Below are positions 3,386-51,828 of a DNA stretch of 64,000 nucleotides, in pieces. The notes under the pieces are model-generated. The model did no database searches, was not told the DNA's origin, and saw only the letters and a list, made by a program, of their open reading frames with translations. How positions within the stretch are numbered: the first letter of the stretch is position 1; each line of letters begins with the position of its first letter. The stretch lies in assembly GCF_055900595.2 (NCBI RefSeq), contig NZ_CM148325.1; one strand, 5' to 3'. Position numbers and translations under genes: made by a program.

Positions 3386-4714
3386 CTGAGAGATCCCCTC
3401 ATAATTTCCCCAAAACGTAACCATGTGTGAATAGATTTTGAGTAAGCAGGGTTGCAGCCACGAGTGAGTCTTCCCTTGTTATTGTGTAGCCAGAATGCCG
3501 CAAAACTTCCATGCCTAAGCGAACTGTTGAGAGTACGTTTCGATTTCTGACTGTGTTAGCCTGGAAGTGCTTGTCCCAACCTTGTTTCTGAGCATGAACG
3601 CCCGCAAGCCAACATGTTAGTTGAAGCATCAGGGCGATTAGCAGCATGATATCAAAACGCTCTGAGCTGCTCGTTCGGCTATGGCGTAGGCCTAGTCCGT
3701 AGGCAGGACTTTTCAAGTCTCGGAAGGTTTCTTCAATCTGCATTCGCTTCGAATAGATATTAACAAGTTGTTTGGGTGTTCGAATTTCAACAGGTAAGTT
3801 AGTTGCTAGAATCCATGGCTCCTTTGCCGACGCTGAGTAGATTTTAGGTGACGGGTGGTGACAATGAGTCCGTGTCGAGCGCTGATTTTTTCGGCCTTTA
3901 GAGCGAGATTTATACAATAGAATTTGGCATGAGATTGGATTGCTTTTAGTCAGCCTCTTATAGCCTAAAGTCTTTGAGTGACTAGATGACATATCATGTA
4001 AGTTGCTGATAGGTTTCCAGTTTTCCGCTCCTAGGTCTGCATATTGTACTTTTCCTCTTACTCGACTTAACCAGTACCAACCCAGCTTCTCAACGGATTT
4101 ATACCATGGCACTTTAAAGCCAGCATCACTGACAATGAGCGGTGTGGTGTTACTCGGTAGAATGCTCGCAAGGTCGGCTAGAAATTGGTCATGAGCTTTC
4201 TTTGAACATTGCTCTGAAAGCGGGAACGCTTTCTCATAAAGAGTAACAGAACGACCGTGTAGTGCGACTGAAGCTCGCAATACCATAAGCCGTTTTTGCT
4301 CACGGATATCAGACCAGTCAACAAGTACAATGGGCATCGTATTGCCCGAACAGATAAAGCTAGCATGCCAACGGTATACAGCGAGTCGCTCTTTGTGGAG
4401 GTGACGATTACCTAACAATCGGTCGATTCGTTTGATGTTATGTTTTGTTCTCGCTTTGGTTGGCAGGTTACGGCCAAGTTCGGTAAGAGTGAGAGTTTTA
4501 CAGTCAAGTAAGGCGTGGCAAGCCAACGTTAAGCTGTTGAGTCGTTTTAAGTGTAATTCGGGGCAGAATTGGTAAAGAGAGTCGTGTAAAATATCGAGTT
4601 CGCACATTTTGTTGTCTGATTATTGATTTTTGGCGAAACCATTTGATCATATGACAAGATGTGTATCCACCTTAACTTAATGATTTTTACCAAAATCATT
4701 AGGGGATTCATCAG
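3386..4714 (-). mobile_element. Insertion sequence IS10 (IS4 family), complete 1,329-bp element
   Basis: Termini CTGAGAGATCCCCTCATAATTTCCCC (3386->) and CTGATGAATCCCCTAATGATTTTGG (reverse complement at 4714<-) form the IS10 inverted repeats; internal 402-aa transposase; length 1329 bp; flanked by 9-bp direct repeats. Confidence 0.95.
3399..4607 (-). CDS. IS10 transposase
   Basis: 402-aa ORF MCELDILHDSLYQFCPELHLKRLNSLTLACHALLDCKTLTLTELGRNLPTKARTKHNIKRIDRLLGNRHLHKERLAVYRWH... matches the IS10/Tn10 transposase as I recall it. Confidence 0.95.
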   Translation of the reverse strand: MCELDILHDSLYQFCPELHLKRLNSLTLACHALLDCKTLTLTELGRNLPTKARTKHNIKRIDRLLGNRHLHKERLAVYRWHASFICSGNTMPIVLVDWSDIREQKRLMVLRASVALHGRSVTLYEKAFPLSEQCSKKAHDQFLADLASILPSNTTPLIVSDAGFKVPWYKSVEKLGWYWLSRVRGKVQYADLGAENWKPISNLHDMSSSHSKTLGYKRLTKSNPISCQILLYKSRSKGRKNQRSTRTHCHHPSPKIYSASAKEPWILATNLPVEIRTPKQLVNIYSKRMQIEETFRDLKSPAYGLGLRHSRTSSSERFDIMLLIALMLQLTCWLAGVHAQKQGWDKHFQANTVRNRNVLSTVRLGMEVLRHSGYTITREDSLVAATLLTQNLFTHGYVLGKL

Positions 4715-26143: not shown

Positions 26144-26449
26144 TTACTGCGGTTCGGCAGGCGCGCCATCCTGAGTAGACTGCGCGGGGGCAGAGACGTT
26201 ACCGCTGGTGGTGCGGGTGTAAAGAATTTTATGCGTATCATTGGCGCAATGCCCGACGACCTGGGAATCAGGCTGATCAACCTGGTCATTGGGTACAATA
26301 CTTAACGTGAAGCTGCTTTCAGGTACGCCATTATTGATAATACGCTGTAATATATCGCTCTGTATGCGCTCACAGGAAACCGGGACGGCGAGTACCGCGG
26401 GTGAGGTGAGTGCGAGCAGAAGCGCGGCACAGCAGGTTGAGAGTTTCAT
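26144..26449 (-). CDS. ynfD: DUF1161 periplasmic protein YnfD
   Basis: ORF MKLSTCCAALLLALTSPAVLAVPVSCERIQSDILQRIINNG... with signal peptide; start at the internal ATG. Confidence 0.8.
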   Translation of the reverse strand: MKLSTCCAALLLALTSPAVLAVPVSCERIQSDILQRIINNGVPESSFTLSIVPNDQVDQPDSQVVGHCANDTHKILYTRTTSGNVSAPAQSTQDGAPAEPQ

Positions 26450-36060: not shown

Positions 36061-36113
36061 CGGCGGCAGAGCAGTCACGGAGTAAAACTGATACCGCTAA
36101 ACGTCACCAGAAA
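36061..36113 (-). ncRNA. dicF: DicF small regulatory RNA (ftsZ-targeting sRNA)
   Basis: Reverse complement TTTCTGGTGACGTTTAGCGGTATCAGTTTTACTCCGTGACTGCTCTGCCGCCG followed by T-run; near-identical to the 53-nt DicF sequence as I recall it; located just upstream of dicB. Confidence 0.75.
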
Positions 36114-41669: not shown

Positions 41670-41823
41670 TTTTATATTGGCGAGGTGACGTGAGTTAAGT
41701 AGAATTGCTGCGGGTGCTTGAGGCTATCTGCCTCAGGCATGAACACCAACGGCAGATAGAGAAAAGCCCCAGTTAACATTACGCGTCCTGCAAGACGCTT
41801 AACATTAATCTGAGGCCAATTTC

Positions 41824-42036
41824 ATGCTAGACACATGTAGGTTAGCCTCTTACGTGCCGGAAGGCAAGGAGAAGCAGGCTATGAAGCAGCAAAAGGCGAT
41901 GTTAATCGCCCTGATCGTCATCTGTTTAACCGTCATAGTGACGGCACTGGTAACGAGGAAAGACCTCTGCGAGGTACGAATCCGAACCGGCCAGACGGAG
42001 GTCGCTGTCTTCACAGCTTACGAACCTGAGGAGTAA
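41824..42036 (+). CDS. mokD: Mok-like leader frame (N-terminally extended hok reading frame)
   Basis: ATG at 41824, MLDTCRLASYVPEGKEKQA-MKQQK...; same frame as hok, as in annotated mok/hok pairs. Confidence 0.5.
   Translation: MLDTCRLASYVPEGKEKQAMKQQKAMLIALIVICLTVIVTALVTRKDLCEVRIRTGQTEVAVFTAYEPEE
41881..42036 (+). CDS. hokD: Hok-family type I toxin (HokD/RelF-like)
   Basis: 51-aa ORF MKQQKAMLIALIVICLTVIVTALVTRKDLCEVRIRTGQTEVAVFTAYEPEE. Confidence 0.9.
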   Translation: MKQQKAMLIALIVICLTVIVTALVTRKDLCEVRIRTGQTEVAVFTAYEPEE

Positions 42037-42202: not shown

Positions 42203-42817
42203 ATGCAGAATTTATCTCAACAGTTGTTAGAAGCATATGACAAGGAGTGCCGCAAAGAGCTTTCGATCGCGTTAGCACAGGCTTATCTTCATTCGCATAT
42301 GAAGGCAAAAGAGTTTGGTTCTTTTTGGGCTCAAGCACAGTCATATTTGCGCTGGTTTTATGCCGATGCATTGCTTGAGAATGCGGCTAAGCGTGTGGGG
42401 CTGGATTTTGAAGTCGGTAGCAATGCTGCTAAAAATTGTAAACACATTGCGATTCACTCGAACAACTGGAAAATGACGGCACATCATTTATCGGGTAATG
42501 CGCCACTTCCTAAGCAGGCATTGTATAGAGCTGTTTACGCTAATCAAAATTATGAATTGAATTTTGGGGATGAAAATGCCGACTCCCTGGATGGGAGAGC
42601 GTCTGGTGGACATGTTTATATGTTACATGATGGCAGTAATCAGCACTTGTCCAAACTGAATTTAACTGTTCCTTCTTCGGATAATTACGGGATTCTTTAT
42701 ACTGAGTCTTTACCAATTATGACGATGGTAGAAGTTGAAGCAGAAAATGTGGATTCTGAGATTGAAGATAAAATCAAGATTCTTACCGAACAAATAATTA
42801 AATCACAGCAATCATGA
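42203..42817 (+). CDS. Uncharacterised protein, upstream partner of the HTH-peptidase gene (candidate toxin/effector)
   Basis: 204-aa ORF MQNLSQQLLEAYDKECRKELSIALAQAYLHSHMKAKEFGSFW...; RBS AAGGA; stop overlaps the next gene's start (ATGA); no motif recognised; AT-rich. Confidence 0.7.
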   Translation: MQNLSQQLLEAYDKECRKELSIALAQAYLHSHMKAKEFGSFWAQAQSYLRWFYADALLENAAKRVGLDFEVGSNAAKNCKHIAIHSNNWKMTAHHLSGNAPLPKQALYRAVYANQNYELNFGDENADSLDGRASGGHVYMLHDGSNQHLSKLNLTVPSSDNYGILYTESLPIMTMVEVEAENVDSEIEDKIKILTEQIIKSQQS

Positions 42818-43959
42818 GCATGAATATCGCACAAACACCATTTACTGATAAATCGTTTAATCCTCGTCGCCTTGAGGAGGCAAGAGAGGCAAAAGGGTTG
42901 ACGATGGCTGAACTTGCCAGAGTGCTCAATATTTCAAGACAAGCTATTTCGTCATTTGAGAAGGGGTTGAAGTCTCCCTCTGCTGATACACTTTCTGCAA
43001 TAGCCAAGGTGTTAGGATTTCCAGAACGATTTTTCTTAGCCTCCAGTGCTTCTCCATCTCTGGAGGGGGCGATTCATTTTAGAAGTCGTTCAACTGCGAC
43101 CAAAAAGGCTCGAGTTACAGGGAAAACACGTGGGCGTTGGGCGGCATTAATATTGGATGAATGTCTAAAATATGCTCAATTACCAGATGTGGTTCTGCCT
43201 GAATTCGATATTATTGATTTTGAGGTTCTGTCTCTATCTGATATTGAGGATATGTCCACCCAATTAAGGCGTTTTTGGGGGTTAGGTGATGGTCCAATAC
43301 TCAATTTAACTAGACTTGTTGAAAATAAAGGAATCGTGGTTTCTCATTTACCTTCTGGTGAGAAAGTTGATGCCTTTTCGTTCTGGCATAATGGGCGGCC
43401 TTTAATTATGTTAGATAGCTCGAAGACGGCTGTTCGCATGCGATTTAGTCTTGCTCATGAACTTGGCCATTTAATTATGCATAGGGCAGTGGAGGATGAC
43501 TACCTGAATGATAAAGAATTATTCGACCTGGTGGAGTTGCAGGCCGATTATTTTGCCTCCAGCTTTTTAATGCCAGCCACCACTTTCGGGCGTGAATTTT
43601 ATAGTCCAAATTTATCAGCGTTAGAACGATTAAAACTACGTTGGATTACATCTATCGGTAGTATTGCCATGAGGAGTCATAGCCTTAAGTTAATCAGCGA
43701 TAATCAGAAAAGCTATATATTTAAGCAATTAGCGCCATTCCATCGTAGGGAGCCGTTAGATGATGCAATCCCAAAAGAAGAGCCTGAGTTACTTAATAAG
43801 TTACTTTTACTTCTTGATAAGCATTCAATCATAAAGGTAACTGAGTTAACTGATATCTTTGCTCTTCCCTTAAATGAGTTATCTGCAATTACACGATTTA
43901 AAGAATCAGATATGATTCATTCTGACAATGTTATTTCATTTACCATAAAACAAAAATAA
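42814..43959 (+). CDS. XRE-family HTH fused to ImmA/IrrE-type zinc metallopeptidase
   Basis: 381-aa ORF; N-terminal HTH (...LTMAELARVLNISRQAISSFEKGLKSPSADTLSAIAKVLGF...) and HExxH motif in ...RFSLAHELGHLIMH...; translationally coupled to upstream gene. Confidence 0.8.
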   Translation: MSMNIAQTPFTDKSFNPRRLEEAREAKGLTMAELARVLNISRQAISSFEKGLKSPSADTLSAIAKVLGFPERFFLASSASPSLEGAIHFRSRSTATKKARVTGKTRGRWAALILDECLKYAQLPDVVLPEFDIIDFEVLSLSDIEDMSTQLRRFWGLGDGPILNLTRLVENKGIVVSHLPSGEKVDAFSFWHNGRPLIMLDSSKTAVRMRFSLAHELGHLIMHRAVEDDYLNDKELFDLVELQADYFASSFLMPATTFGREFYSPNLSALERLKLRWITSIGSIAMRSHSLKLISDNQKSYIFKQLAPFHRREPLDDAIPKEEPELLNKLLLLLDKHSIIKVTELTDIFALPLNELSAITRFKESDMIHSDNVISFTIKQK

Positions 43960-45412: not shown

Positions 45413-45790
45413 ATGCGTGATATTCAGATGGTTCTTGAGCGTTGGGGGGCATGGGCGGCTAATAATCATGAAGATGTGACCTGGTCGTCCATTGCCGCTG
45501 GTTTTAAGGGATTAATTCCTTCAAAAGTAAGATCTCGTCCGCAATGCTGTGACGATGACGCGATGATCATTTGTGAATGTATGGCTCGCCTGAGAAAAAA
45601 CAACAGCGATTTACATGGTTTATTGGTGGACTATTATGTCGGCGGCATGACTTTTATGGCGCTTGCACGTAAGCATGGGCGATCTGATTGTTGGGTTGGC
45701 AGGATGCTCCAGAAAGCTGAGGGCGTAGTGGAGGGCATGCTGATGGTATTGGATCTCCGATTGGAGATGGATGCTGATTGTTCGAAATAA
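45413..45790 (+). CDS. Late-gene antiterminator Q (short QuuD-type)
   Basis: [79 protein letters not shown]...; RBS GGAG. Confidence 0.85.
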
Positions 45791-45888
45791 TTAAAGGAAA
45801 AGTTGCTGTCTGATTGTCATTAGTCTAACATTTTAAATGTTGGAATCGCAACGTAGTTATTATCATATAACAGCTTGTTTCCTGATTT

Positions 45889-45918
45889 AGCCAGCCTCCC
45901 CAAAGGCTGGTTTTTTTC
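45889..45918 (+). terminator. Rho-independent terminator downstream of Q (tR'-like)
   Basis: CCAGCC-tccccaaa-GGCTGG stem followed by TTTTTTT. Confidence 0.55.
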
Positions 45919-45945
45919 TAATAAGTATCATTTCGGGTAGGGATT

Positions 45946-46476
45946 TTATTGTTTAACCCATAATAATTCATTGACATTGAATCCCAACTTTTGAGCGGTT
46001 CGCACATAGTCTGCTTTTACTTTATCTGGAATAGTTGGGGTCCTTGCCAGAATCCATAGGTATTCTCTGTTCGAACCACTAACAAGAGCATACTTATACT
46101 CATCATCCAGTTTGATTACATTATAGCCACCATAGAAGGGGCCAAAAAACGAAACCTTCAACGCTGCAGTTTTAGTATCTCCAGTAAAGTATGCTTTACC
46201 TTCGCTCTCGCTCCATTTATTTTTCGTTGGATCGTATCCACGGTTAAGTACACGAATCCCTCCGTCGTTCCGTTTTCCATAAGTAGCGCTGACCTGCTCC
46301 AGACCACGTTCGAACCGGTTCTCGAGGCGAGCTATTTCATACCATTTTCCGAGGTAGCGGTTGGCGTCAAAATTTGTAATCGGCTGCACACCTTTAGGTG
46401 GTGTCGGGGCCTTACATGCTATAAGAGTGAAAGAGAGTGCAATGCCAGTCAACACAGGCCATAACTTCATAATCAA
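45946..46476 (-). CDS. Outer-membrane lipocalin (Blc homolog) lipoprotein, prophage moron
   Basis: 176-aa ORF with lipobox (...SFTLIAC) and lipocalin core FDANRYLGKWYEIARLENRFERGLE...YLWILARTPTIP; opposite strand to flanking late genes. Confidence 0.85.
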   Translation of the reverse strand: MIMKLWPVLTGIALSFTLIACKAPTPPKGVQPITNFDANRYLGKWYEIARLENRFERGLEQVSATYGKRNDGGIRVLNRGYDPTKNKWSESEGKAYFTGDTKTAALKVSFFGPFYGGYNVIKLDDEYKYALVSGSNREYLWILARTPTIPDKVKADYVRTAQKLGFNVNELLWVKQ

Positions 46477-46662
46477 TCCTGTACTTTTGATAGTTGAGAG
46501 TAAGTATGAAAGATAGATGATTACGACCGATCACTTAAAGAACTTTCATACTATATTAGGAATAGTCCATAACAGAAAAATTGTCAGTGATGACGTCAGA
46601 AAGGCAATTTATTCCGTGCACTACACAGTTTATGTGTTAATGAATTAGTCAAGGGGGAGGAT

Positions 46663-47622
46663 ATGATAAAAAAACCTGTGATTGGAATCAGCGGTTGTTT
46701 GGCCGGTTCTGCTGTTCGTTTTGATGGTGGTCACAAAAGAGCTGACTTTTTAATGGACAAATTAGTGGAATGGGTAACATTCAGACCAGTATGTCCGGAA
46801 ATGGCTATAGGGCTGCCAGTTCCGCGTCCTGCTCTACGTCTTGTGCGCTCGAAGCAAGGAAATATACGGATGTGTTTCAGCCACGACCAGAATGAGGATG
46901 TGACAGAGAGAATGACAGAGTTTAGTCGTTCTTATATGCACAAATTAAAGGATGTATCGGGGTTTGTGGTTTGTGCTAAATCTCCCAGCTGTGGCATGGA
47001 GCGCGTGCGTGTCTATGATGAAAATGGTAATCGAGGTCGTAAAGATGGAGTGGGACTATTTACGAGCACTTTGATGGAAAAGTTTTCCTGGCTACCGGTT
47101 GAAGAGGATGGGCGATTACATGATCCAGTGCTTCGTGAGAATTTTGTTGAAAGAGTTTTTGCTTTGCATGAGCTCAATCACCTTTACAAGGAGAAATTAT
47201 CAAGAAGAGAGTTATTAGCTTTTCATAGTCGTTATAAGCTTCAGTTGTTGGCGCATAGTCAGGCAGGCTATAAAGATATGGGACCATTTGTGGCTGCAAT
47301 ACACGAGTGGGCGGACCTTGAATCATACTTTGAGGTGTATCGTGATAAGCTGATGGCGATTCTCAGAAAACCTGCATCACGTAAAAATCACACGAATGTG
47401 CTGATGCATATACAGGGGTATTTTAGTAATTACTTAAGTACACGCCAGCGTAAAGAGTTGACCGAGGTTATACTTAACTATCGCTTTGGCACATTGCCTC
47501 TTCTTGCGCCGTTGACTCTGCTGAAGCATTATCTGGGTGAGTATCCTAATGATTACTTGCTTACACAGAATTACTTCGATCCCTATCCGGAAGAACTGGC
47601 TCTAAGACTGATGGTGAATTAA
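46663..47622 (+). CDS. DUF523 (TudS-like Fe-S) / DUF1722 (YbgA-like) fusion protein, prophage moron
   Basis: 319-aa ORF; N-terminus MIKKPVIGISGCLAGSAVRFDGGHKRADFL... with conserved cysteines; C-terminal half resembles YbgA/DUF1722; RBS AAGGGGGAGG. Confidence 0.7.
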   Translation: MIKKPVIGISGCLAGSAVRFDGGHKRADFLMDKLVEWVTFRPVCPEMAIGLPVPRPALRLVRSKQGNIRMCFSHDQNEDVTERMTEFSRSYMHKLKDVSGFVVCAKSPSCGMERVRVYDENGNRGRKDGVGLFTSTLMEKFSWLPVEEDGRLHDPVLRENFVERVFALHELNHLYKEKLSRRELLAFHSRYKLQLLAHSQAGYKDMGPFVAAIHEWADLESYFEVYRDKLMAILRKPASRKNHTNVLMHIQGYFSNYLSTRQRKELTEVILNYRFGTLPLLAPLTLLKHYLGEYPNDYLLTQNYFDPYPEELALRLMVN

Positions 47623-48028
47623 CTGTATGCGATATCATCTGAAAGTGATGAGTTCCTGTATGCAGGATATTTACAATCGTAAAAACTACACTATGATACC
47701 CATAGTGTCAGTTTGTATAAAAATCCTGTTCACGCTGAAGAAAACATTGAGATGCAATTTAATGTTGGTAAACATACCAGCCCCAAAAGATTTTATTCAA
47801 TCTGTTTTTATATGAAGATATTTCAAGTGAATATTAAGAGTATATAATATTATTATTGCACGCAGCTATTATAATATAACAGATTAGTTTAATGATTTGT
47901 TTTTTGTGAGTTAAACACATGGTTTTATAGTTGTGATGCAATGAGATTTTCCTTATTGTTGAACTGGCGAATATTGATTTTCCACCTATACTTACCTGGT
48001 GTAACCCCAGTGATATCAGGTGGATAAT

Positions 48029-48742
48029 ATGCCATACATATGTTCTGTCATTTTGGTGTTGAACTCGTTTGGTGTCCGAATTGGTAAAGAAGATATTTTG
48101 TTTAAAAAAGGAAGTGCTGTCCTCATCGAATACAATTTAAAAGATCTTTTTTCGTCAAATACAGATCATCTAATGATCGTAGATGTTGAGGAGAAAACAG
48201 TTAATGATTTCTTTAAAAACTACACACTCTCACCTTTTTCTGTAAGAAGGTTTTATCCGTCATACTTGATAGTAGAATGTGAAGATTTTTCATTGTTAAG
48301 GAACTTGGTTGCATGCTTGAATTGTGATAGCAAAACCGTGGATGTAGTTAGAAATCAAATATCACTTGCATGTCTTGCTGTCTTATCTTCAGAGAAAATA
48401 GTGCAAAGTTTTTTGTTCGGAAGTCTTAATAGCTTAGGTTGTAAAGTTAAGGCTATTATTCACTCGGATATCTCAGCGTCATGGAGACTTTGTGATATAT
48501 CTTCAAGATTATATATGAGCGAGAGTTTGTTAAAAAGAAAATTAAAAGACGAAGGATTATCGTTTAGTAAATTAATTCTTGAAGAACGAATGATGATGGC
48601 GCAAAGATTATTGATCTACAGTAACCATACTGTCGGCAAGGTGGCGGGAATATGCGGGTATGACAATGCATCATATTTTGTAAGTGTTTTTAGAGGATAT
48701 TTTGGTGTGCCTCCGCACCAATATTTATCAAGATTTTCTTAG
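48029..48742 (+). CDS. AraC/XylS-family transcriptional regulator (prophage-encoded), in AT-rich block
   Basis: ORF MPYICSVILVLNSFGVRIGKEDILFKKG...; C-terminal AraC HTH (...SESLLKRKLKDEGLSFSKLILEERMMMAQRLLIYSNHTVGKVAGICGYDNASYFVSVFRGYFGVPPHQY); RBS AGGTGG. Confidence 0.8.
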   Translation: MPYICSVILVLNSFGVRIGKEDILFKKGSAVLIEYNLKDLFSSNTDHLMIVDVEEKTVNDFFKNYTLSPFSVRRFYPSYLIVECEDFSLLRNLVACLNCDSKTVDVVRNQISLACLAVLSSEKIVQSFLFGSLNSLGCKVKAIIHSDISASWRLCDISSRLYMSESLLKRKLKDEGLSFSKLILEERMMMAQRLLIYSNHTVGKVAGICGYDNASYFVSVFRGYFGVPPHQYLSRFS

Positions 48743-48932
48743 AAGATATGATGTGATGGCATTTTATAAAGTTATTTTTTGAAGTGTAAGATTATACGAT
48801 ATTTTTAGCTACGCCAGAATAATTGCTGGCGTTTTTCTTTTTGAATAGATGTTCGGGCCTTACGCTAATGTAACTTCTTTCCTTCTTCGAACCAAACCGT
48901 GTACACCATCCGTTATCTGCGGAGGTGAGGCT

Positions 48933-49148
48933 ATGAAATCCATGGATAAGTTAACAACGGGCATCGCCTACAGCACCTCTGCAGGCAGTGCTGGCTACTG
49001 GTTTTTACAGTTGCTCGATAAAGTCACGCCCTCACAGTGGGCGGCAATAGGTGTATTGGGTAGTCTGGTATTTGGCATGCTGACGTATCTGACAAACCTT
49101 TATTTCAAGATTAAAGAAGACAGGCGTAAGGTTGCGAGAAGAGAGTAA
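48933..49148 (+). CDS. Holin (EssD/lambda S-like class)
   Basis: 71-aa [74 protein letters not shown]; RBS GAGGTGAGG. Confidence 0.85.
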
Positions 49149-49152
49149 TCCA

Positions 49153-49704
49153 ATGACTCAAGACTATGAACTGGTTGTGAAAGGAGTTCGCAATTTTGAG
49201 AATAAAGTGGCGGTAACTGTAGCCTTACGGGACAAAAAACACTTTGACGGTGAAATTTTTGACCTGGACATCTCGCTGGACCGTGTTGAAGGTGCCGCGC
49301 TGGAGTTTTATGAGGCAGCAGCCAGAAGGAGCATCAGACAGGTCTTCCTGGATGTTGCTGCCGGGTTATGTGAAGGGGATGAGCAGTCGCCGGAAAAGCG
49401 CCCCATAATTTTAGAGGCGCAGAATGTGTGGATAACCTACAAAGGAAAGCTACCGGGAAGAATTACTGGTTCTCTGAAGACGCCACCGACGGCATTGCGG
49501 TCAGAAAAAGATGATATTGAATCGCCCATTGAAAAACTGGAGGGCAGCGTCGCTGATCTGAATAAAAAATTGTCGGTGCTGATTCCTTCTGAAGATGAAA
49601 AAAAACGCCGCGATGAGCAGTTTGCGGCGTTTTACGATTATTGCATTGAAGTTACTCGCAGGAATTTTGTGAAGATTTTTGAGGAGGGTAAATCTCTTCA
49701 GTAA
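49153..49704 (+). CDS. Hypothetical protein inserted between holin and endolysin
   Basis: 183-aa ORF MTQDYELVVKGVRNFENKVAVTVALRDKKHFDGEIFDLDISLDRVEG...; RBS GAGAG; no recognisable motif. Confidence 0.5.
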   Translation: MTQDYELVVKGVRNFENKVAVTVALRDKKHFDGEIFDLDISLDRVEGAALEFYEAAARRSIRQVFLDVAAGLCEGDEQSPEKRPIILEAQNVWITYKGKLPGRITGSLKTPPTALRSEKDDIESPIEKLEGSVADLNKKLSVLIPSEDEKKRRDEQFAAFYDYCIEVTRRNFVKIFEEGKSLQ

Positions 49705-49912
49705 GCTTATTGGCGGACGCTGCAATTAATTCAGGAAGGTCCGCAAGGTCATCTGTCAGTGGATATGATGAAAAATCGGCGGCAGTTCTGTTAAGAAGCG
49801 CTTTAACTAATTCCTTTTCCTTCTCCGGCAACAAGTTGATTAGAGCTACGACTGCTTGCCTGAGTGCGATTAAATCAGCAAAAGTTTGTTTAGGTAGATT
49901 TGTGTAATCCAT
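49652..49912 (-). CDS. Hypothetical protein, convergent and 3'-overlapping the preceding gene
   Basis: 86-aa ORF MDYTNLPKQTFADLIALRQAVVALINLLPEKEKELVKALLNRTAADFSSYPL...; RBS GAGG 7 nt upstream; 53-nt 3' overlap with the plus-strand ORF. Confidence 0.35.
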   Translation of the reverse strand: MDYTNLPKQTFADLIALRQAVVALINLLPEKEKELVKALLNRTAADFSSYPLTDDLADLPELIAASANKLTEEIYPPQKSSQNSCE

Positions 49913-50025: not shown

Positions 50026-51053
<1,028 letters not shown>

Positions 51054-51416
51054 ATTAATATTAAATCGGATTATTTTTAGCGCTGAATGTGAAATTTAAA
51101 TAAAAAGGACTCTTCCATGAGTCAAAATCCTTGAAATCTTAAGGGTAAGATAAAAGGTCATTAGACAGAATGACACGTTTTATTAATAAATAAAGCTATT
51201 GTTTCATTCGTGTGTTTTTCTTTACAAAAGTAATCCTTGCTATGGTTGGTTAATCATGCGTTAATGGTGTTCTGGTTTGTTACAAAATTATCTGAAGCAG
51301 TCATTGTTATAATTTTATTATTTGTACCTCTTGAGATTTCCTTGTTGGTTTTTCTCTCTGATATTTTTTTTCGGACCATTCTGCCCAAGGGCTAACTTCT
51401 TCAAAAGGTAATAATG

Positions 51417-51629
51417 ATGTCTAACAAAATGACTGGTTTAGTGAAATGGTTTAACCCTGAAAAAGGTTTTGGTTTCATCACGCCGAAAGATGGTAGCAAA
51501 GATGTGTTTGTCCATTTCTCAGCTATTCAGAGCAACGATTTCAAAACGTTAACTGAGAATCAGGAAGTCGAATTTGGTATTGAGAACGGACCTAAAGGCC
51601 CCGCGGCTGTTCATGTTGTGGCACTTTGA
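51417..51629 (+). CDS. cspI: Cold-shock protein (CspA family; CspI-like)
   Basis: 70-aa [73 protein letters not shown]; preceded by ~360-bp untranslated AT-rich leader. Confidence 0.85.
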
Positions 51630-51828
51630 GGTAGATAATATTACAAACCATATTCACTTTAGATGCCCGTGTTGCCATGGTTCTCAGTATAGAACATCAT
51701 CTTTTGATGTTTCTGACAGGAATCCTTTCGGGGCAAAATGTATCTTTTGTAAATCAATGATGATTACATTTGATAATATTTCACAATACTTAAATGTTAG
51801 CCGTCTATCGTTAGATTTAAGAAAGTGA
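51613..51828 (+). CDS. Candidate small zinc-ribbon-like protein (CPCC...CxxC)
   Basis: [51 protein letters not shown]...; overlaps csp 3' end; weak RBS; followed by terminator. Confidence 0.25.

Follow-up and report, generated by a model that had tools for sequence, protein, structure and literature searches.

Between the late antiterminator gene Q and the holin gene of a Qin-like lambdoid Escherichia coli prophage lies a block of three cargo genes, a so-called 'moron'. The prophage is carried on contig NZ_CM148325.1 (assembly GCF_055900595.2), and the 64,000-nucleotide stretch of that contig analysed here is referred to as the window. The block comprises a gene for a Blc-type lipocalin, rudS, whose product is predicted to convert 4-thiouridine (s4U) in tRNA to uridine, and a gene for an AraC-type regulator. 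We consider it likely, with a probability of roughly three in four, that RudS erases tRNA s4U and that this cargo serves a light- and oxidative-stress function, probably expressed in the lysogen. The core of this finding is already known, because the RudS family was characterised in 2024 and a near-identical phage allele, RudS_vir, was cloned and assayed at that time. What is added here is the three-gene anatomy of the cargo, its high prevalence in E. coli, the apparent derivation of two of its genes from the ends of a MerR-operon locus, and a second, independent acquisition of RudS by prophages.

An initial annotation of this DNA had described the 319-residue product as a fusion of a DUF523/TudS-type domain with DUF1722, and this proved exact. 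Pfam placed 2-thiour_desulf/DUF523 (PF04463, E = 1.2e-39) at residues 7–149, over the full model, and DUF1722 (PF08349, E = 9.4e-40) at residues 192–309 of the same polypeptide, so that both domains are present at full length. The annotation had also proposed that the cysteine ligands of the iron–sulphur (Fe-S) cluster be checked by alignment, and all three were conserved, with Cys12, Cys44 and Cys110 aligning to Cys10, Cys43 and Cys104 of the solved TudS structure 6z92. Conservation relative to this structure extended to Glu46 (CPE motif) and to Ser107 and Ser109 (SPSCG motif); the role of these catalytic Glu and Ser motif residues has been described (PMC11417400).

Jamontas et al. (NAR 2024; PMC11417400) gave the fusion of TudS with DUF1722 the name RudS and reported that RudS proteins expressed in E. 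coli reduce tRNA s4U and that the three Fe-S cysteines are required. One of the six proteins assayed, RudS_vir, is gp66 of Escherichia phage 1H12 (NC_049947); its cysteines are Cys12, Cys44 and Cys110, and it lowered tRNA s4U in E. coli (PMC11417400). RudS from the window was 92% identical to RudS_vir over 319/319 residues without a gap, and its three cysteines occupied the positions reported for both RudS_vir and RudS_ST (PMC11417400). On this homology the window gene is rudS, and the activity of its product is predicted from the published assay of the 92%-identical ortholog. That assay agrees with the earlier idea that a phage-borne enzyme could act on thiouridine in host tRNA; of the two substrates then named, s4U stands and 2-thiouridine (s2U) does not. 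The enzyme itself had been read correctly, but its prior characterisation as RudS had been overlooked. RefSeq names the product imprecisely as a 'YbgA family protein': NF007549 reached 190 bits where the cutoff is 237, and its match was limited to residues 160–315. We rejected assignment to the YbgA equivalog, a stand-alone DUF1722 protein of ~169 residues, because the score fell below the NCBIfam cutoff and the window protein fuses DUF1722 to a second domain. YbgA on its own left s4U unaffected (PMC11417400).

The cargo was widespread in E. coli. Matches to the 3-kb block occurred in 1153 of 5426 complete genomes; in 880 of these, the match spanned 80% or more of the query. The lipocalin–rudS pair matched 1150 genomes of this set, 1046 near full length, and these matches were almost all chromosomal. 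E. coli has been said to lack RudS homologues (PMC11417400), a statement that is true of K-12 but untrue of ~21% of complete genomes. PLSDB returned four records, all of 0.28–4.9 Mb and probably chromosome-derived or mis-assigned, and their very large size argues against any real spread on plasmids. The block was also present in 12 deposited phage genomes, and it occurred in two backbones, one lambda-like (O/P/ren/nin, rrrD, iss/bor) and the other Qin-like (hokD, ydfU, essQ, rrrQ, cspI). In IMG/VR, 36 loci contained the E. coli-type cassette. Synteny, established by targeted look-ups, followed the order Q, lipocalin, RudS, (AraC-like), holin wherever the contig was long enough, and Q was co-linear with the cassette in 36/36 of these viral contigs.

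Degraded copies were found in some strains, with rudS cut by the insertion sequence IS3, interrupted by IS1, or partial. The Qin-like prophage of E. coli B95.deltaA (NZ_CP085842.1; locus L022, 3501–5557) has an intact lipocalin gene, and IS3 truncates its rudS after ~49 codons, which indicates that laboratory B strains retain only a remnant of rudS. Insertions of IS1 or IS2 within the cassette were seen in H45 (NZ_CP147125.1) and H1/H2 (NZ_CM144249.1), one of them splitting rudS into separate DUF523 and YbgA annotations.

Outside E. coli, the nearest RudS relatives were chromosomal. Among the matches listed, the closest was from Citrobacter (76% identity), and the others, at 70–75%, came from genera that included Serratia, Klebsiella, Enterobacter, Pectobacterium and Salmonella. 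In Citrobacter, Klebsiella and Pectobacterium, rudS ends a long run of same-strand genes whose order, where the 5' end was visible, is MerR(MlrA-like)-SnoaL-SDR-amine oxidase-DUF1365-CFA synthase-DUF2878-(~175 residues)-DUF3833-RudS. The nearest relatives of the phage lipocalin lay upstream of, and divergent from, that merR gene in 6/6 cases examined. Klebsiella variicola and Scandinavium displayed the full locus, with the lipocalin divergent from MerR and RudS at the far end. The lipocalin of Cedecea lapagei was likewise divergent from MerR, and the stretch examined there stops within the operon, before its RudS end. Serratia rubidaea carried a short version (lipocalin/MerR/RudS), and metagenome contigs had the arrangement lipocalin/MerR/transthyretin-like/RudS. 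A merR gene was present in all chromosomal loci examined far enough upstream, and the Salmonella RudS copy is reported to be under a MerR-family regulator (PMC11417400). By protein identity and gene order, the lipocalin and RudS of the phage match the genes at either end of a single conserved enterobacterial locus. The 175-residue protein of the Citrobacter operon, which has no Pfam match, was considered as a possible lipocalin and rejected, being unrelated on comparison.

The surroundings of two of these loci are worth recording. On a JGI metagenome contig (L016, 161–5525), the mini-locus with the 82%-identical lipocalin adjoins genes for an rve-family transposase and an AAA_15/AAA_21 ATPase, and it may itself be located on a mobile element. 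In Scandinavium sp. (L069, 273–3131 and 10622–13431), the lipocalin/MerR...RudS locus adjoins icd, the attachment site of e14 in E. coli K-12. Prophage-type genes (dinI, ynfU-like, cspI-like, ymcF-like) are found at its RudS end and an IraP-like gene at its lipocalin end. A location this close to a prophage hotspot may have a bearing on the pick-up of these genes by phages.

The lipocalin had been annotated as a Blc-like lipoprotein, and the profile searches confirmed this. NCBIfam NF007786 ('outer membrane lipoprotein Blc') matched over the full length with 312 bits against a cutoff of 267, Pfam Lipocalin_2 matched at 3e-43, and the solved E. coli Blc structures (PDB 1qwd, 2aco, 3mbt) matched with E = 5e-68. 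The N-terminus of the translation reads MKLWPVLTGIALSFTLIAC-K, a lipoprotein signal with the lipobox L-I-A-C and Lys (not Asp) at position +2; localisation to the outer membrane is predicted. The gene had been called correctly, but its start is likelier to be 46470 (the RefSeq ATG) than 46476. Identity was 59% to E. coli Blc, a value consistent with the alignment to the solved structures, and 76–82% to the lipocalins flanking MerR–RudS loci, which are thus the closer relatives. Blc lipocalins bind lysophospholipids or fatty acids, and the chromosomal blc gene adjoins ampC.

Both open reading frames (ORFs) from which the cargo was first recognised, 45946–46476 on the minus strand and the 319-residue frame at 46663–47622 on the plus strand, are present in the ORF list, and strong profile matches argue that they are not chance ORFs. 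Their placement between Q and the holin gene was also correct (Table 1). The extent of the cargo was corrected: the lipocalin and fusion genes stand, but the block does not end at 47622, as a third gene (48029–48742) belongs to it. The gene pair had been recognised, but the AraC-type gene and the chromosomal linkage of lipocalin and RudS had been overlooked.

Q is named 'antiterminator Q family protein' in RefSeq, and the holin gene is the RefSeq essQ of a 100%-identical strain. The holin gene bounds the slot downstream and opens the lysis cassette, which continues with a lysozyme gene (50026–50559) and an Rz-like gene. The composition profile of the block showed a guanine-plus-cytosine (GC) content of 31–45%, compared to 50–55% in the flanks, and nucleotide homology to 1H12-type phages ended at ~47740. 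The block therefore combines the properties expected of a moron, namely insertion between conserved phage genes in two backbones, deviant composition and terminator-like hairpins on both sides. All three cargo proteins were already in PHROG families annotated as 'unknown function'. PADLOC detected no defence-system or counter-defence signature among them, Rfam at gathering threshold detected no RNA family in the cassette, and the cassette had no tRNA genes of the kind found in Shiga toxin (Stx) phages. A literature search for a lipocalin–RudS prophage cassette turned up the RudS paper alone.

Table 1 Features of the cargo block and its borders, in window coordinates
Feature	Position	Strand	Length	Remarks
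Short Q-type late antiterminator	45413–45790	+	125 aa	PHROG phrog_79 'anti-termination protein Q-like', 1.5e-49
Candidate late promoter/leader (PR'-like)	45791–45888	+		Candidate by position only
tR'-like intrinsic terminator	45889–45919	+		Directly 5' of the cargo; 9-bp GC-rich stem and U7 run
Blc-subfamily lipocalin	45946–46470	−	174 aa	Predicted outer-membrane lipoprotein
Divergent lipocalin–rudS intergenic region	46471–46662			Presumed site of both cargo promoters
RudS	46663–47622	+	319 aa	TudS-type desulfidase with DUF1722; predicted to convert tRNA 4-thiouridine to uridine
AT-rich spacer	47623–48028	+		~31% GC; separates two cargo modules (composition profile)
PatE-like AraC/XylS regulator, YdeO/GadX type	48029–48742	+	237 aa	Downstream of rudS, after the AT-rich spacer
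Second terminator-like hairpin	48811–48840	+		Closes the block before the holin gene; 7-bp stem with 5 GC pairs, U-run
Class II holin, essQ-like	48933–49148	+		PHROG holin families, 1e-35

The third cargo protein has a C-terminal AraC-type double helix-turn-helix (HTH), detected as Pfam HTH_18 (7e-16) and also as HTH_AraC, and its best NCBIfam matches, YdeO and GadX, were below cutoff. It was 48% identical over the full 237 residues to ECs_0287 of Sakai Sp1, the sole such regulator in Sp1. PatE (z0321) is encoded in CP-933H/OI-8 (PMC10877973), and the equivalence of Sp1 to CP-933H suggests that ECs_0287 is PatE. The window gene would then be a probable member of the PatE family, of which PatE itself, like PsrB, activates the gadE and hdeA acid-resistance promoters and represses the enterocyte-effacement locus (LEE) (PMC10877973). 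An Stx2k phage carried a 39%-identical homolog in its Q-to-holin slot, between Q and the tRNA–stx2 genes, which indicates that regulators of the PatE/AraC type recur as cargo at this position. Same-slot alleles in other phages ranged from 76 to 99% identity and fell into classes of ~99%, 85% and 76%, whereas across loci full-length lipocalins stayed at 96–99% and RudS at 92–98%. This points to the regulator being a separately recombining module.

The hairpin upstream of the cargo (45889–45912) had a folding energy of −14.9 kcal/mol (z = −4.3) and 0/200 shuffles folded equally well. Stem and loop were identical in three phage alleles across 45889–45919, where 1H12 differed solely by an additional T in its T-run. 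The corresponding values for the downstream hairpin (48811–48832) were −11.3 kcal/mol and z = −2.5. A further hairpin in the spacer (47688–47708; −13.1 kcal/mol, z = −5.6) is without a proper U-tract. The interval from Q to the lipocalin gene (45780–45950) showed 97% mean column identity among the window, phage 1H12 and phage IdasGreatGrand. A TTGCTG-17 nt-TAACAT motif, which the consensus scan did not flag, can be read within 45791–45888, and this region may represent the PR'-like late promoter. Column identity among three phage alleles was 95% in the divergent intergenic region, which held a weak promoter-like match (46494–46521, plus strand; 9/12 positions); the number of sites in the consensus scan was not above that in shuffled sequence. 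No LexA box (CTGT-N8-ACAG) was found in the cassette, the sole match in the window, at 26360, being within chance expectation. An inverted-repeat search for operators across 45780–48940 returned AT-rich palindromes alone, of doubtful meaning.

The ratio of non-synonymous to synonymous substitution rates (dN/dS) between the window and 1H12 alleles was lowest for the lipocalin (0.07), followed by Q (0.09), RudS (0.13) and the AraC-like protein (0.21), at dS values of 0.2–0.6, and ratios of 0.07–0.21 indicate that these genes are kept by purifying selection. Six IMG/VR contigs (L060–L065; e.g. L062, 4001–4960) carried a RudS that was 73% identical to that of the window and 82% identical to the chromosomal RudS of Citrobacter braakii. 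Here, rudS lies in the nin region, flanked by genes for DnaC-like loaders/activators and, at its opposite end, by DinI-RusA-YdfU-Q, and the lipocalin is absent. These contigs match Citrobacter phage Chris1 and probably represent a Citrobacter-type prophage group. The C. braakii-like RudS, the different slot and the lack of a lipocalin point to a second, independent acquisition, and RudS has thus entered lambdoid phages at least twice.

In the mechanism that we favour, Cys12, Cys44 and Cys110 would hold a [4Fe-4S] cluster whose free iron binds the sulphur of s4U, as described in the family literature. Glu46 together with Ser107 and Ser109 would complete the desulfuration to uridine, and the C-terminal DUF1722 domain would dock the tRNA; DUF1722 has been modelled as a binder of the tRNA anticodon region (PMC11417400). 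As s4U, most commonly at position 8, is the near-ultraviolet sensor of tRNA, its erasure should weaken both ultraviolet A (UVA) crosslinking of tRNA and the ensuing growth arrest. In E. coli, RudS_KT leaves fewer tRNAs open to UVA crosslinking and lessens the UVA-induced growth delay (PMC11417400). In the lysogen, the block would be transcribed from its own promoters, with the flanking terminators insulating the lysis genes, and the cargo would supply E. coli with a light- and oxidative-stress function that the chromosome lacks. Upon induction, polymerase modified by Q would traverse the block, transcribing rudS and the AraC-like gene in sense and the lipocalin gene in antisense. Both the expression pattern and the benefit to the lysogen are inferred.

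Several observations weigh against this reading. Desulfidation of tRNA by RudS_vir was below that of other RudS proteins despite good soluble protein levels, and of the RudS proteins tested in a uracil auxotroph, RudS_vir had the shortest lag on 4-thiouracil (PMC11417400), which suggests that tRNA may not be its sole or main substrate. The consensus scan found no convincing sigma-70 promoter for the lipocalin gene, and no merR homolog was present in any phage locus examined; the MerR regulator that would tie these genes to light is missing. Other points concern the capture of lipocalin and rudS as one block. No donor closer than 82% was found, and the best lipocalin relative (82%, the metagenome locus) and the best RudS relative (76%, Citrobacter) belong to different loci. 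In blastn at word size 7 against five chromosomal loci, homology was confined to coding sequences, and no merR remnant or shared operator was detected in the phage intergenic DNA. As the nearest relatives come from different loci and the phage intergenic DNA lacks chromosomal homology, capture as one block is plausible but falls short of being demonstrated.

RudS could instead be mainly a tool of the lytic cycle, which we regard as unlikely, though to be taken seriously. Late Q-dependent transcription after ultraviolet (UV) light or SOS induction would then strip s4U and spare late phage translation from UVA crosslinking and the stringent response, or allow escape from a tRNA-directed host response. 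Lambdoid prophages are classically induced by UV, and late transcription runs in the same direction as rudS and the AraC-like gene, which lie directly downstream of Q and the tR'-like terminator. Moreover, the second prophage group has rudS in the early nin region, next to a DinI homolog and on the strand of the lytic transcript, and the fact that RudS was acquired twice independently, in different slots, suggests that the phage itself benefits. However, tRNA that is already crosslinked is beyond repair by RudS, and late expression leaves little time for turnover of the tRNA pool. The terminator-like hairpin before the holin gene and the divergent intergenic region are typical of lysogen-expressed genes, and the cassette has neither a PADLOC defence or counter-defence signature nor a LexA box. 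A tentative extension, which we also hold to be doubtful, is that lambdoid phages repeatedly recruited RudS (between Q and holin, and in nin beside dinI) for takeover and not solely to benefit the lysogen, with s4U removal at UV induction uncoupling phage translation from crosslinking and the stringent response.

It is improbable that RudS works chiefly on small thiolated pyrimidines such as 4-thiouracil and 4-thiouridine monophosphate (s4UMP), in the manner of stand-alone TudS, and so serves salvage or detoxification and not tRNA editing. The TudS catalytic core is fully conserved, and the short 4-thiouracil lag of RudS_vir, together with its low tRNA desulfidation at high soluble protein levels, speaks for such an activity (PMC11417400). 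Against this, no RudS, RudS_vir included, matched TudS in rescuing growth on thiouracils, and all RudS proteins tested lowered tRNA s4U (PMC11417400); in addition, DUF1722 is intact, and purifying selection acts on the entire protein. That the cassette is a neutral hitch-hiker with a successful Q/lysis module, functionless for phage and host, is very improbable, since its constant linkage to the same short Q and class II holin and the existence of IS3-cut, IS1-interrupted and partial rudS copies are outweighed by the low dN/dS of all three genes at the divergence given above, by the occurrence of intact copies both in over 1000 genomes and among phages that were deposited as isolates, and by the independent uptake of RudS in another prophage lineage.

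Erasure of tRNA s4U by prophage RudS would have practical consequences. E. coli has been treated as RudS-free and used as a null background for s4U and UVA experiments, whereas about one-fifth of complete genomes carry a prophage RudS. A prophage could therefore determine how strains differ in s4U, in near-UV growth delay and in the kinetics of the stringent response. For the Blc paralog, the pairing with RudS gives a functional context, in that the operon it flanks terminates with rudS, a gene that frequently lies in operons responding to light (PMC11417400). Finally, the recurrent uptake of RudS by temperate phages offers a specific example, open to experiment, of an RNA-modification eraser carried by phages.

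Other features of the window were recorded alongside the cargo. Upstream of the DUF968 and Q genes, two overlapping genes (42203–43959, plus strand) matched the Rosmer anti-phage system in PADLOC, the 204-residue protein weakly to RmrT (7.5e-10) and the 381-residue HTH-peptidase strongly to RmrA (5.5e-102). The latter also matched the NCBIfam spr1629-like repressor/antitoxin, below cutoff. Another strain has an AbiH gene at the same prophage position, and the two findings together make this an apparent slot for defence cargo. In the lysis region, a 190-residue ORF after the holin gene (49132–49704, plus strand) matched phrog_2091 at full length, where RefSeq has a truncated 'YdfR family' pseudogene alone, and its end is overlapped by an 86-residue ORF on the minus strand (49652–49912; phrog_2572). 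Rfam identified the sok antitoxin RNA (with hokD; 41712–41886), the DicF small RNA (36061–36112) and a cspA-type thermoregulator 5' untranslated region upstream of cspI (51259–51675), all of which are typical Qin-prophage features. An IS10 RNA-OUT (4600–4669) shows that a copy of IS10 lies close to the beginning of the window.

Among known systems, RudS_vir of phage 1H12 has the same 319-residue architecture, the same cysteines and the same slot order (Q, lipocalin, RudS, AraC-like, holin) as the window. The window allele differs from it by 24 substitutions and lies in a Qin-like backbone, whereas that of 1H12 is lambda-like. The published work assayed a synthetic RudS_vir gene alone and gave no description of the cassette (PMC11417400). 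Chromosomal RudS proteins, such as those of Salmonella (RudS_ST/ORF319, STM1389), Citrobacter, Klebsiella and Serratia, share their length and architecture with phage RudS. However, their genes belong to a MerR-headed locus, mostly as the last gene of the operon, whereas the phage copy is without MerR and occupies a late-operon slot. The two end genes of the enterobacterial lipocalin/MerR...RudS locus correspond to the phage pair, in the same divergent orientation, but the phage is without MerR and the middle genes, and the intergenic DNA is unrelated. E. coli Blc shares fold family, lipoprotein signal and length with the phage lipocalin, which belongs to a paralogous lineage linked to RudS loci. 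PatE, PsrA and PsrB of enterohaemorrhagic E. coli (EHEC; reviewed in PMC10877973) are, like the third cargo protein, prophage-borne AraC/XylS regulators of the YdeO/GadX type; at 48% identity, the window regulator is not an ortholog of ECs_0287, and its candidate targets include gadE/hdeA and the cassette itself. The Stx genes and other Q-to-S morons of lambdoid phages occupy the same slot, 3' of Q and tR' and 5' of the holin gene, and have a similarly foreign composition, whereas the cargo described here, which includes no toxin, consists of a predicted tRNA-modification eraser, a lipocalin and a regulator.

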